DNA of 64,000 nt from Vulcanimicrobiota bacterium (GTDB lineage Bacteria > Vulcanimicrobiota > Vulcanimicrobiia > Vulcanimicrobiales > Vulcanimicrobiaceae), in assembly GCA_963795855.1 (NCBI GenBank), contig CAWCIZ010000003.1:544001-608000 (forward strand). The letters run 5' to 3'. Below, in pieces: positions 4,042 to 7,078 of the stretch (position 1 is its first letter; each line of letters begins with the position of its first letter). The notes beneath the pieces are model-generated. The model made no database searches. It saw nothing but the letters and a program-made list of their open reading frames with translations, and was not told where the DNA came from. Position numbers and translations under genes: made by a program.

Positions 4042-4079
4042 CGTCCAAAGGGCATTATCCCCTCACGGCACGGGTAACC
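4042..4079. repeat. Target-site duplication copy 1 plus terminal inverted repeat
   Basis: CGTCCAAA followed by GGGCATTATCCC...GTAACC. Confidence 0.93.
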
Positions 4080-4276
4080 GAAATCTCGAAAATGCGCTAG
4101 TGTTATCAGATCAGAGCCTTAATCTTTTCGTTCATGTTCGCGGGGCATAAACAAAGCGTGAAGTTTCGGCTTTTACCAAACCGTGACCGTTGACATTACG
4201 CCCTAAAGCCGGATGATTAGATTCCGACGTATAGCATGGATGCCAAGGATGGCCCACTGGTAGTCTGGAGAGCAGC

Positions 4277-4471
4277 ATGGAGAATTGCCTTGTGTGTGGC
4301 AAGCCAGTTCGAGTCGAGTACCCTGGGTTGCCGCGCGCCCGTGCGCTTTGTGATGATGTTTGCAAGCGAATCTGGGCTGCTCAAACCGGCAAAGAATACA
4401 TCAGTATGCAAGAATACGCCAGCAGGGTGAACGCGGCGACGAAACCTATCCACCCTACTAGCGCGTCGTAA
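4277..4471 (+). CDS. Small Cys-rich (CxxC...CxxxC) putative zinc-binding passenger protein
   Basis: MENCLVCGKP...LCDDVCK; GGAGAG RBS upstream; TTGACA at 4190-4195 with a candidate -10 GATGAT at 4212-4217. Confidence 0.55.
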   Translation: MENCLVCGKPVRVEYPGLPRARALCDDVCKRIWAAQTGKEYISMQEYASRVNAATKPIHPTSAS

Positions 4472-4494
4472 GTCTACCTTAGCGGGTTATCGAT

Positions 4495-4764
4495 TTAGTA
4501 AACAGGCAGACTTAGCAGATTGTCAGCAACGGAATCATTCGGTAGTGTCCGTATGTACGGACGCCGGATGGTCCCGCAAACGACGACTACACGAGTCCGG
4601 CGATCGCCGTCCACCGTGTAGAGTTCGTTTCCGCCGTTGATAAACGCGATGATGGCCGATAGAGTCATCGTTAGCGTTACGCCGAAGACGGTTCGACATT
4701 CCACGTCGGTGATTATGGAGTGGGGACCCTCTAGGTACACTCCTATTGCTTCCAGAGATTGCAT
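4495..4764 (-). CDS. DUF3892-like passenger protein (89 aa)
   Basis: AAGGAGG RBS (4780-4774) before ATG 4764; C-terminal PYIRTLPNDSVADNLLSLP resembles the DUF3892 signature. Confidence 0.7.
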   Translation of the reverse strand: MQSLEAIGVYLEGPHSIITDVECRTVFGVTLTMTLSAIIAFINGGNELYTVDGDRRTRVVVVCGTIRRPYIRTLPNDSVADNLLSLPVY

Positions 4765-4795
4765 TGAGCAAGACCTCCTTGTGACGTGTCGCACC

Positions 4796-4919
4796 CGGCG
4801 CTTGGGATGCGGGCGGAGTGCCCGCGCCAAGTCACCAGCGTTCCCACCGAGGCAGGAGCGCTGTCGGGGTACCGGCTTCCCCCGATTTGCCGTCCGCTGA
4901 AGCACTCATCACCTGCGGA
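4796..4919. ncRNA. Structured non-coding segment (multi-hairpin junction)
   Basis: CGGCG/TGCCG closes three hairpins (CTTGG..GCGGGC/GCCCGC..CCAAG; CAGCGTTCC/GGAGCGCTG; TCGGGG/CCCCGA), followed by TCCGC/GCGGA. Confidence 0.45.
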
Positions 4920-5000
4920 AATCTCATAGTACCTCTGGACTGGTGCGGTCGGTAGCCCATTCTCCGAAGCCTTAGCTTTCGCTAAACGAAGCGGGCCCTT

Positions 5001-5029
5001 TTGCGTCACCGTCCGGTTCGTGATAATGT
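5001..5029 (+). promoter_or_regulatory. Putative sigma70 promoter for cloverleaf RNA A
   Basis: TTGCGT (5001-5006), 17 bp, TAATGT (5024-5029) with TG extension; predicted start about 5036. Confidence 0.5.
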
Positions 5030-5035
5030 TGGAGC

Positions 5036-5127
5036 GGAGCCGGGGAATCTTATTTCATGCGCGGTACCAGCGCGCACCCATGGTTTCTAAGGCCAGGTCG
5101 GACACTTGTCACGATTCGGCGGCTCCA
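5036..5127 (+). ncRNA. Cloverleaf/tRNA-like small RNA A (non-canonical)
   Basis: Perfect 7-bp GGAGCCG/CGGCTCC plus unpaired A; inner GAATC/GATTC; arms TGCGCG-7nt-CGCGCA, TGGT-TTCTAAG-GCCA and GAC-ACTT-GTC. Confidence 0.55.
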
Positions 5128-5136
5128 AAATGAATC

Positions 5137-5167
5137 GGGCTCATCTTTTAAGATGGGCCTGTTCTTT
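5137..5167 (+). terminator. Intrinsic terminator-like hairpin after RNA A
   Basis: GGGCTCATCT-TTTA-AGATGGGCCT then GTTCTTT; its G-U pairs are valid only on the + strand. Confidence 0.55.
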
Positions 5168-5194
5168 ACGCGGCATTCTCCGTTTCGGTTGCGG

Positions 5195-5626
5195 CTATTG
5201 TGGCGGGCGGAACGTCGCCGATCCACCGATACGTTCGAGGGGCAATTTTTTGACCATGTGGCGTTGGGAGAGGTTGTAGCACGAGACATCAGTCGCTGAA
5301 AGCGGACTGTCAGCCCGCGTTACTGCGTTCATTGCCTGAGCGCGCTTCCATAATTCCTTTACGTGCATCGGGGTGCCGTGCGCTTCGTACAGAATGCGCG
5401 CGATGGCGCTCATTAATGAAGGCCCGCCCTTCGACCGTGGCGGAACGACATTCGGCGGTTCGATGCCTAACGGTAGCGGCTCGCCATTACTTGCATTCAG
5501 CGTGAGCCAGCGTTCGTCGGCGCGTAGCATGTCGAGCAGTACTTCTCTCTGCCTATCAAGGTTGGCGAGCGTTTCTCGAACTTGTGCTAGCCGATCGCGG
5601 ACTGCTTGCTCGGTTAACATGGTCAT
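5195..5626 (-). CDS. Passenger protein: N-terminal coiled coil plus C-terminal winged-helix-like DNA-binding domain
   Basis: 143 aa; heptad-like VRDRLAQVRETLANLDRQREVL; SLMSAIARILYEAHGTPMHVKELWKRA wHTH-like; AAGGGA RBS. Confidence 0.65.
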   Translation of the reverse strand: MTMLTEQAVRDRLAQVRETLANLDRQREVLLDMLRADERWLTLNASNGEPLPLGIEPPNVVPPRSKGGPSLMSAIARILYEAHGTPMHVKELWKRAQAMNAVTRADSPLSATDVSCYNLSQRHMVKKLPLERIGGSATFRPPQ

Positions 5627-5648
5627 TTCGGTTCCCTTTTGCTATAAT
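5620..5648 (+). promoter_or_regulatory. Putative sigma70 promoter for cloverleaf RNA B
   Basis: TGGTCA (5620-5625), 17 bp, perfect TATAAT (5643-5648) with TG extension; predicted start about 5655. Confidence 0.65.
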
Positions 5649-5653
5649 GGCAA

Positions 5654-5722
5654 TGGCGACGCCGGGGCCTCGATCCCCGGAGTTACGGGATTTCAGTCCC
5701 GCTTCTGTCCGAACCGCCGCCA
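5654..5722. ncRNA. Cloverleaf/tRNA-like small RNA B (non-canonical; strand ambiguous)
   Basis: Minus strand: GGCGGCG G TTC-GGACA-GAA GCGGGA-CTGAAA-TCCCGT AACT CCGGGG-ATCGAGG-CCCCGG CGTCGCC A. The promoter and terminator signals are on the + strand. Confidence 0.55.
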
Positions 5723-5724
5723 TC

Positions 5725-5770
5725 GGGGGCCCTGGGTCTGTCACCAAACTTCCCCAGGCCCCCTTACTTT
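5725..5770 (+). terminator. Terminator-like hairpin after RNA B
   Basis: GGGGG(C)CCTGGG, 16-nt loop, CCCAGGCCCCC, followed by TTACTTT. Confidence 0.5.
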
Positions 5771-5935
5771 ATCATAACGAGTCTGCTCGCATCATAGGGG
5801 GTAGGCCCTATGTAGGACCTAATAGCTCCATAAAGTTTAGGTAAAAGAGGCGTATGGACAAAACTAAGGGCGTGGCACCATCCGGCGAACGCCCATATGA
5901 ACGGGTTGACTTTCTACGCGACTTGTCTAAGGCGT

Positions 5936-6943
5936 CTAAGAAACTAGCTTCCGGGGATGATGCTTCGCTGGAAAGTGACGCGCAAGAAACTCCTGGGAAA
6001 TCTGACCGCAAAGAATCGTGAACATCGGCTTGCCATCCTCGCGATGGTTGTAGCGGAAGCAATACTCGTCTAAGTAACCCTGAATGTGCTTGCGCGAGAT
6101 ATGCTTGTACACGCCGCGCACACTGCCACGGAAATGCGACCAGAAGCCCTCGATCGTGTTCGTCGAAACGCCGTCCGCATCGACGTAAACGCCGTCACTG
6201 TGCTTCACTAGTCTGTGAACGTAACCCCAATGCTTGAGGGGAACGTATTGCGGGGCTTCGTCTGTATGAATTTCACTACCGGGCTTGACTCGCTGCTTGA
6301 TGGGCTGCGTCAACTCGAAGAATCCGCGCCGTTCTACGGGATAAGCCGCAATACGGCCACCACGCTCGACTAAACCCGCGATTACGATCTTGCCGGTTTC
6401 GGGCCCAACAACTTGCGGAAAACGCGCACGAGCCCGACGGTTCATGCGATTAACCTTCGGCCCGAAATACGTTTCATCGGCTTCTACTATCTTGTCGCCG
6501 CCGAGATCGTGAACGTCCTCTAGTAGCATCTTGCGAATGAGGTTGAACATGCGCCACGCAGTTTTATACGTAACGCCGGTTTCGCGCATGAGCTGCATGG
6601 CGGAAATGCCACAACGGGTCGCGCTCATCAAGTAGATCGCGTGGAACCACGTTTTGAGGCTTGTCTTGGACTTGTGGAAGATCGTGCCGGCCGTCGGATG
6701 CGTATGCGTTCCGCAGTAATCGCAGGTCCAGACCTTGGGGCGATTCTTGAGCTGGTGATGGGGGCGGACCTCGCCGCATTGCAAACAGTGGATATACAGT
6801 GCGTCCGCGTCCTCGGGGGCCCATAGCGGCTGCGGATAGAGAGACTTGACCAACCAGCGCATACACGCGATATCGTCCGGAAACTCGGATTCGAACTGCT
6901 TGAACGTGTACTTGCTGTTCTTGGGTAGGTTTAGGCTCGGCAT
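5936..6943 (-). CDS. IS1595-family DDE transposase
   Basis: N-terminal Zn ribbon (CLQC...WTCDYC), TIFHKSK, VEADETYFG, IHTDEAPQY, TNTIEGFWS, YLDEYCFRYN; GGAGG RBS before ATG 6943. Confidence 0.96.
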   Translation of the reverse strand: MPSLNLPKNSKYTFKQFESEFPDDIACMRWLVKSLYPQPLWAPEDADALYIHCLQCGEVRPHHQLKNRPKVWTCDYCGTHTHPTAGTIFHKSKTSLKTWFHAIYLMSATRCGISAMQLMRETGVTYKTAWRMFNLIRKMLLEDVHDLGGDKIVEADETYFGPKVNRMNRRARARFPQVVGPETGKIVIAGLVERGGRIAAYPVERRGFFELTQPIKQRVKPGSEIHTDEAPQYVPLKHWGYVHRLVKHSDGVYVDADGVSTNTIEGFWSHFRGSVRGVYKHISRKHIQGYLDEYCFRYNHREDGKPMFTILCGQISQEFLARHFPAKHHPRKLVS

Positions 6944-6973
6944 AGGGCTCGCCTCCACCTACAGCGTATCATG

Positions 6974-7011
6974 GGTTACACGTGCGGTCAAGGGATAATG
7001 ACCCGTCCAAA
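6974..7011. repeat. Terminal inverted repeat plus target-site duplication copy 2
   Basis: GGTTACACGTGCGGTCAAGGGATAATGACC followed by CGTCCAAA. Confidence 0.93.
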
Positions 7012-7044: not shown

Positions 7045-7051
7045 TCCATCG

Positions 7052-7078
7052 CTGGCACTCTATTGCTGAGAGTGCCAA
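7052..7078. promoter_or_regulatory. CIRCE operator (HrcA site)
   Basis: CTGGCACTC-N9-GAGTGCCAA vs consensus TTAGCACTC-N9-GAGTGCTAA, upstream of groES. Confidence 0.92.

Follow-up and report, generated by a model that had tools for sequence, protein, structure and literature searches.

Why would an insertion sequence carry structured RNAs on both sides of one of its passenger genes? The question is raised by an IS1595-family element at positions 4050–7003 of a 64,000-nucleotide (nt) stretch of DNA from a Vulcanimicrobiota bacterium (GenBank assembly GCA_963795855.1, contig CAWCIZ010000003.1, positions 544,001 to 608,000; hereafter the window). A first-pass annotation had read the cargo of this element as a single cassette of three small proteins interleaved with hairpin clusters, and had proposed a mobile RNA-protein module. 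We found that the clusters do hold structured RNAs, and that two of them prove to be tRNA-like cloverleaves, which that annotation had not seen. Homologous sequences point to cloverleaf structures with conserved anticodon loops, framed by convergent promoter and terminator signals and moving between elements as units.

Two tRNA-like cloverleaves bracket a winged-helix gene

The features of the predicted RNA module are:

5035–5126, minus strand: R2, class II tRNA-like cloverleaf (homologue alignment)
5166–5626, minus strand: gene for a protein with a long N-terminal helix and a winged helix (wHTH; profile, structure model)
5654–5721, minus strand: R1, tRNA-like cloverleaf of compact build, within the leader of the wHTH gene (ARAGORN at lowered threshold, comparison)
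5766–5774, minus strand: extended −10 element of a sense transcript comprising a hairpin, R1, wHTH and probably R2 (consensus match)
5620–5648, plus strand: promoter of antisense unit 1, sigma-70-type and with an extended −10, located 5 nt past the R1 3' end (consensus match)
5725–5770, plus strand: terminator of antisense unit 1, hairpin and T-run (fold, sequence)
5021–5029, plus strand: antisense unit 2, extended −10 located 5 nt past the R2 3' end (consensus match)
5136–5167, plus strand: terminator of antisense unit 2 (terminator scan)
4954–5002, plus strand: candidate terminator, hairpin and T-run (read from the sequence; unlisted by the terminator scan)

A BLAST search of the cargo against 301 genomes of the family gave five strong matches (E of 1e-14 or better), all of them to R2, at 86–95% identity. 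Four of these five homologues adjoin IS1-type transposases, where they occupy the 3' end of an unrelated passenger gene of about 260 amino acids without a Pfam match. Aligned on the minus strand, the six copies share all the arms of a cloverleaf (acceptor, D, anticodon, variable and T); 99.4% of 172 cells are paired, and 7 of 29 pairs are compensatory, with changes on both sides. None of 500 shuffles reached this paired fraction, a count that is not a probability because the six sequences are related, and slid controls gave 32–45%. The D-stem shows no covariation because it is invariant; the anticodon triplet is likewise invariant across the copies.

The body of R2 is of the serine type (G1-C72, G2-C71, A3-U70, G73 and a long variable arm), whereas its loop, CUUAGAA, presents UAG, a leucine anticodon, and reads C/U-U-UAG-A-A across the six copies. 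One homologue was called tRNA-Leu(tag) by ARAGORN at lowered threshold. Related, more canonical cloverleaves follow wHTH genes at three loci: those of L263 and L269 most resemble host tRNA-Ser but have UAG loops, and that of L265 most resembles tRNA-Leu but has GUC. Of these, L263 and L265 pass Rfam RF00005. A tRNA with a long arm and UGC is present in L045. UAG is kept in eight of nine R2-type RNAs, and predicted body and anticodon are mismatched in the R2 class. R2 also occurs without the wHTH gene, always antisense-framed, and was not found in the plasmids, phages or viral contigs searched.

R1 carries a GAA (Phe) loop, 6 nt long as assembled, and A73. A wHTH profile gave 33 genomic matches, of which we analysed the 16 strong ones (the window, 10 more in the host's phylum and 5 in Chloroflexota) and dropped 17 as weak, partial or within longer frames (L270-L273, L276-L286, L290, L296); among 14 scanned loci of these 17, ARAGORN at lowered threshold gave scattered matches in five. 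Eight of the 16 genes bear an R1-type cloverleaf in their leader, on the strand of the gene. The stems are unrelated in sequence; six of the loops read GAA, one GUC and one AUC. The GUC-loop RNA has a G3-U70 pair, the alanine element according to Mukai et al. (PMC5389517). The tRNA strand folds better than its complement in all eight R1-type RNAs (host tRNAs, 39/48), and the hand-drawn helices contain 13 G-U and no A-C pairs. Carriers comprise IS1595, IS1-type and a DDE_Tnp_1 element. An R1 model returned a best E of 0.28 over 100 loci of transposase relatives and, over 151 genomes, one already known copy besides that of the window. Alignment A6, in which the 6-nt loop of the window copy is out of register, was excluded from the pair counts. 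Single-base oddities of the window copies may be assembly errors, since the assembly has indels: an alanine racemase gene (775–1916) is split over three frames, likely by such indels, and the wHTH gene is broken within an A-run (see below).

The support for an RNA module is comparative. Folding z-scores were computed from 200 shuffles within the cluster borders of the first-pass annotation. Two clusters outfold the shuffles (5036–5167, z = −4.9 on the plus and −3.2 on the minus strand; 5654–5770, −2.4 / −2.9, with the R1 cloverleaf alone at −0.7), and the third mostly does not (4796–4900, −1.1 / −2.5; 4890–4997, about 0). Folding stability alone is weak evidence, because none of the clusters reached z −3 when 68 fixed windows of 100 nt were scanned blind, each on both strands. 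Rfam gave no match in the element, and ARAGORN at default called nothing there and R1 only at lowered threshold; thus, R1 and R2 fall short of canonical tRNAs (ARAGORN default, Rfam RF00005). A home-made cloverleaf finder, which made 7 matches in the cargo and 3 in shuffles and missed both R1 and R2, was discarded. The module is nevertheless a real and recurrent one that escapes standard annotation, which would miss most such RNAs because they lie below the ARAGORN and Rfam thresholds.

Convergent promoters and terminators frame the cloverleaves

Promoters and terminators were identified as consensus matches. In the window, both antisense −10 boxes end 5 nt past the 3' end of a cloverleaf, and each mirror RNA would therefore cover the cloverleaf and then stop. 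Among 17 cloverleaves, 14 have an antisense promoter, 15 an antisense terminator, 7 a sense promoter (all R1-type) and 2 a sense terminator; the corresponding counts among 48 host tRNAs are 5, 16, 11 and 23. Twelve of the 16 wHTH genes have an antisense −10 at 20–60 nt before the start (22–57 nt upstream of the start codon and pointing away from it), 11 have a sense promoter at 120–230 nt before it, and 10 have the two together. A convergent pair of this kind occurs in a fraction of 0.003 of 3200 shuffled upstream regions and of 0.0004 of 2356 host open reading frames (ORFs). Two 9-bp near-palindromes stand in tandem at 5802–5821, with 11 bp between them, before the sense promoter; they are a candidate operator for the wHTH protein, and are not clearly seen in homologues. 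In three Chloroflexota loci (L293, L294, L295), the wHTH leader contains long hairpins with a shared short direct repeat and no cloverleaf.

A proposed toxin–antitoxin model and its alternatives

We tentatively favor the explanation that the cloverleaf loci are RNA-only toxin–antitoxin (TA) modules built from tRNA mimics. We infer transcription of both strands, processing, toxicity, rescue and a role for the wHTH protein. The minus-strand promoter signal at 5766–5774 would give one transcript with the hairpin, R1, wHTH and, by read-through, R2, from which host tRNA-processing enzymes may free the cloverleaves. Because R2-type RNAs have a serine-type body but a leucine anticodon, seryl-tRNA synthetase could charge them and serine would be inserted at CUA/CUG codons; alternatively, if their arms are too degenerate for decoding, they may instead occupy synthetases or tRNA enzymes. 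R1-type RNAs, which keep a Phe anticodon loop while the body changes freely, might act likewise. The opposite-strand promoter just past each cloverleaf 3' end is placed to yield a terminated mirror RNA over the cloverleaf and not over the ribosome-binding site; this RNA would pair with the mimic and remove it. Upon loss of the element or shut-off of host transcription, the mirror RNA would be depleted first and growth would arrest, resulting in addiction or abortive infection. In the weakest step of this scheme, the wHTH protein most likely represses the module's promoters. We favor this TA explanation because the only possible cis target of the mirror RNA is the cloverleaf, and because the anticodons are conserved and mismatched tRNAs of such build are lethal in E. 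coli. The earlier proposal of a mobile RNA-protein module under antisense control is supported by homologues, covariation and promoter/terminator framing; that of an RNA antitoxin fits the antisense strand, and that of an anti-phage unit draws its support solely from the genes beside homologues.

Several observations weigh against the TA explanation. Decoding by R2 in translation appears doubtful because of its 7/4 branch, the lack of a canonical T-loop in the close R2 family and a T-arm that, in the window copy, is a further 2 nt shorter than in the homologues. Folding leaves the strand of the R2-type RNAs unsettled, with the tRNA strand folding better in only four of nine and not in the window copy. 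None of the nine R2-type RNAs has a sense promoter within 130 nt, 5 of the 16 wHTH loci have none in the far window, and five loci (L287, L291, L293, L294, L295) have both promoters and no clear cloverleaf. The discriminator bases of R1-type RNAs vary. Six irregular allo-tRNAs tested by Mukai et al. (PMC5389517) did not translate. Furthermore, the promoter windows were set after inspection of the data, the helices were drawn on the favored strand and the loci are not independent.

The main rival, to which we give somewhat less weight, takes the cloverleaves as cis-acting RNase P/Z processing or stability signals at the ends of passenger mRNAs; mirror RNAs would then set the mRNA level, and the wHTH protein or another passenger would be the effector of a type I-like TA system or defence-island regulator. 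R1 and R2 bracket the wHTH gene exactly, Chloroflexota homologues have defence-type neighbours and tRNA-like processing signals are known (PMC4919922); this alternative gains weight because the convergent promoter pair, present at 10 of the 16 wHTH genes, persists at five loci without a clear cloverleaf. Processing would not need a conserved anticodon, yet GAA (6/8) and UAG (8/9) are kept, and the antisense units end short of the ribosome-binding site, unlike SymR (PMC8610362).

It is distinctly unlikely that the mirror RNA is the product that matters, presenting a codon (UUC, CUA) in its loop and binding a host tRNA or protein, with the tRNA strand merely its template or antidote. Although the plus-strand units are the best framed (promoters at 14/17, terminators at 15/17) and R2 folds as well or better on the mirror strand in 5/9, where G-U pairs extend the anticodon hairpin, folding of R1-type RNAs favors the tRNA strand in 8/8, and most copies are too dissimilar to host tRNAs for long pairing. 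Captured tRNA genes in decay, neutral cargo with incidental promoters, would account for the near-canonical tRNA genes in 5 of 103 related elements, for the graded degeneracy and for the short arms of the window copies; we regard this as improbable, since compensatory changes, anticodon loops conserved on unrelated stems and the framing statistics would not be expected. We find it harder still to credit that the RNAs are decoys or supplements against anticodon nucleases, or supply codons to phage-stressed cells. TA-type genes (DUF433, Panacea) do occur among related cargos, but tRNAs with mismatched body and anticodon would mistranslate and not supplement, the window cargo gave no nuclease-type match and the genome has tRNAs for GAA and UAG.

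Cargo proteins and the DUF3892 leader

The remaining cargo features are:

4277–4471, plus strand: Cys-rich ORF of 64 amino acids, putative gene (ORF list)
4495–4764, minus strand: DUF3892 gene, 89 amino acids (strong Shine-Dalgarno sequence at 4773–4780)
4773–4919, minus strand: structured DUF3892 leader, forming the core of the first of the annotated clusters (homologue alignment)
5854–6021, plus strand: basic peptide of 55 amino acids, convergent on the transposase (ORF list)

All three small ORFs of the first-pass annotation are present, and a fourth, at 5854–6021 on the plus strand, had been missed. The assembled wHTH frame stops at 5195, owing to a frameshift within the A-run at 5241–5255, and the C-terminal motif of the family continues in another frame to 5166. 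The protein is modelled as a helix plus a winged helix. Its match to HARE-HTH (PF05066) is weak (E = 7.6e-4, 20.3 bits; cut-off 25.9), the nearest named Atlas cluster is 38% HARE-HTH, and fold searches gave only generic winged helices (best Z 8.9; Foldseek, no E < 0.001), leaving a likeness to Rok or SymE conjectural. It has 120 relatives at E 0.001 or better, none of them in the viral contigs or plasmids searched. Among the genes beside the Chloroflexota homologues are those for DUF3800, TIR, AbiEi/AbiEii and restriction-modification, and a DUF3800 gene follows one wHTH locus.

The DUF3892 protein exceeds its Pfam cut-off and is the sole cargo match in PHROGs, to a family of unknown function; PADLOC gave no match for the cargo and NCBIfam single weak ones. 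The Cys-rich ORF has zinc-ribbon Pfam matches only, all sub-threshold, and no homologue among proteins of 35–112 amino acids. Among nine other DUF3892 upstream regions, the leader matched one, that of an IS1595 passenger (L305; E = 1.3e-7), and in this two-sequence alignment 6 of 33 predicted pairs are compensatory. The leader pattern occurs in 2 of 151 genomes, that of the window included, and in no viral contig searched; readings as a riboswitch or ribozyme found no Rfam support and were set aside. The DUF3892 leader is a separate module, which occurs without wHTH, and in IS1-type elements R2 accompanies another passenger gene. Instead of one cassette, the cargo therefore consists of several separable modules.

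In IS1595 elements, the strand opposite the transposase gene encodes a short peptide motif, basic and amphipathic, that either stands alone or forms the end of a passenger protein. When half of the data was held out, the motif was antisense in 26 of its 51 elements and sense in none, and was absent from 262 kb of host DNA; after one iteration it was found in 56 of 103 elements. The 55-amino-acid window peptide probably belongs to this family, common in these elements, although it scores 7.1 bits against the profile, for which a threshold of 8 bits was used. The peptide is possibly a transposase accessory or inhibitor. The commonest passenger cluster (43 elements, e.g. L088:1600-2667) shows trypsin-like motifs by eye, has no Pfam match and also draws in short ORFs via a shared peptide tail.

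The element and its relatives

The element and its borders comprise:

4042–4049: target-site duplication, copy 1 (sequence comparison)
4050–4079: terminal inverted repeat, cargo end (repeat alignment)
5936–6958, minus strand: IS1595-family transposase (open reading frame, Pfam)
6974–7003: terminal inverted repeat, transposase end (repeat alignment)
7004–7011: target-site duplication, copy 2 (sequence comparison)

The intact ends, 8-bp duplication and uninterrupted transposase noted at first pass were borne out. The element is 2,954 bp long and single-copy in the genome; its 30-nt inverted repeats are identical at 25 of 30 positions (83%), and the duplication CGTCCAAA stands at both 4042–4049 and 7004–7011. 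An open frame of 340 amino acids matches PF12762 (E = 1.8e-32), identifying an IS1595-type DDE transposase. The terminal repeats and 8-bp duplication are those of an IS1595 element, in agreement with the insertion site being empty in two of three congeneric genomes searched; the third gave no match. ISNwi1-group IS1595 elements have an 8-bp duplication, GGnnATTAT-type ends and passenger genes. The element shares the PF12762 transposase, 8-bp duplication and passenger DNA with this group, and we take its ends to fit the GGnnATTAT motif. It is flanked by a lipoprotein-like gene, whose ORF reads into it (about 3990), likely through an assembly indel, and by groES. An inverted repeat before groES (7045–7075), about 40 nt from the element end and kept at the empty sites, is CIRCE-like.

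The closest transposases are in genomes of the same family, and also in Eremiobacteraeota and Candidatus Cybelea. Scanning 211 loci gave 108 related elements delimited by their ends, 103 of them distinct; all delimited elements carry passenger DNA, and nhmmer found the window RNAs shared at the sequence level by none of the 103. Five of these 103 (L045, L050, L071, L138, L213) hold tRNA genes that pass ARAGORN; the one in L050 has an antisense promoter and terminator by eye, and that in L213 precedes a DUF3800 gene. A second RNA motif (L016, L018, L035, L243-L246, L264, L267, L287) comprises a perfect Shine-Dalgarno sequence, a start codon, a mini-frame and a hairpin, often with an antisense promoter; a Glu-Ser/Pro codon pair is conserved in it, in frame in 10/10 despite variable spacing. 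We take this motif to resemble CreT-type RNAs.

Comparison with known systems

Phage P1 C4 RNA acts on targets within its own operon or transcript; the element gave no Rfam C4 match, and its complements of 8–10 nt are at chance level. C4, t-elements and mascRNA/menRNA, which are RNase P substrates (PMC4919922), share with R1 and R2 a tRNA-like structure at an mRNA end or in a leader. They do not need an anticodon. The DUF3800, drum and skipping-rope motifs are likewise structured RNAs that end in a terminator and accompany a particular small gene, in one orientation or the other; the portion of PMC5737381 on them does not describe them as tRNA-like, and Rfam gave no match to them here. A literature search, with most subscription journals outside its reach, found neither IS1595 paired with tRNA-like RNA nor insertion sequence-borne tRNA mimics with cis-antisense units.

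In type I SymE/SymR (PMC8610362), the 5' region of a gene for a small protein is likewise overlapped by a cis-antisense RNA. However, SymR overlaps the Shine-Dalgarno sequence, whereas the mirror RNA here would start upstream of it and cover the cloverleaf only, and the wHTH loci would thus lack antisense cover of the ribosome-binding site. In type VIII SdsR/RyeA (PMC8610362), a single locus encodes one small RNA on each strand, and masking of one by the other has been proposed; the promoter and terminator signals fit this layout, judged from sequence alone. SdsR is an mRNA-pairing RNA, while the candidate toxin here is an insertion sequence-carried tRNA mimic inside a passenger mRNA.

Allo-tRNAs come closest to R2. 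Mukai et al. (PMC5389517) give a long arm and G73/U73 as seryl-tRNA synthetase elements, and report that allo-tRNAs occur close to TA loci and to a transposon-related gene and that some are lethal in E. coli. R2 shares the Ser-type body and non-Ser anticodon, the long variable arm (7 bp, 3 compensatory pairs), the long D-stem (6 bp with a bulge) with a tetraloop in 5/6 copies (5 nt in L247), and G73 in 6/6. It departs from them in its acceptor branch, which is not of 12 bp as 8/4 or 9/3 but 7/4 (7-bp acceptor, 4-bp T-stem, one unpaired C), and R1 is a short-arm type. Four diagnostic R1/R2 substrings are absent from the supplement of PMC5389517, and its main text lacks the words 'antisense' and 'opposite', although the maps in its Figure 4A could show similar loci.

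How carriers tolerate mistranslating allo-tRNAs was left open before; a dedicated mirror RNA would answer this, an idea testable with constructs of about 120 nt. More tentatively still, we propose that several insertion sequence families carry undescribed RNA-only addiction or abortive-infection modules, with a proteome-corrupting tRNA of mismatched body and anticodon as toxin and a full-length mirror transcript as antitoxin, in cassettes that are shuffled among elements of the IS1595, IS1-type and further kinds across at least two phyla. If so, a tRNA-mimic class would join the RNA-only TA systems, with insertion sequences moving such RNAs; that toxicity and rescue will hold and establish a new toxin class is a prospect we put forward with similar reserve. 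By analogy, the module would work most like an allo-tRNA set in the layout of SdsR/RyeA, but with a branch that allo-tRNAs do not have.

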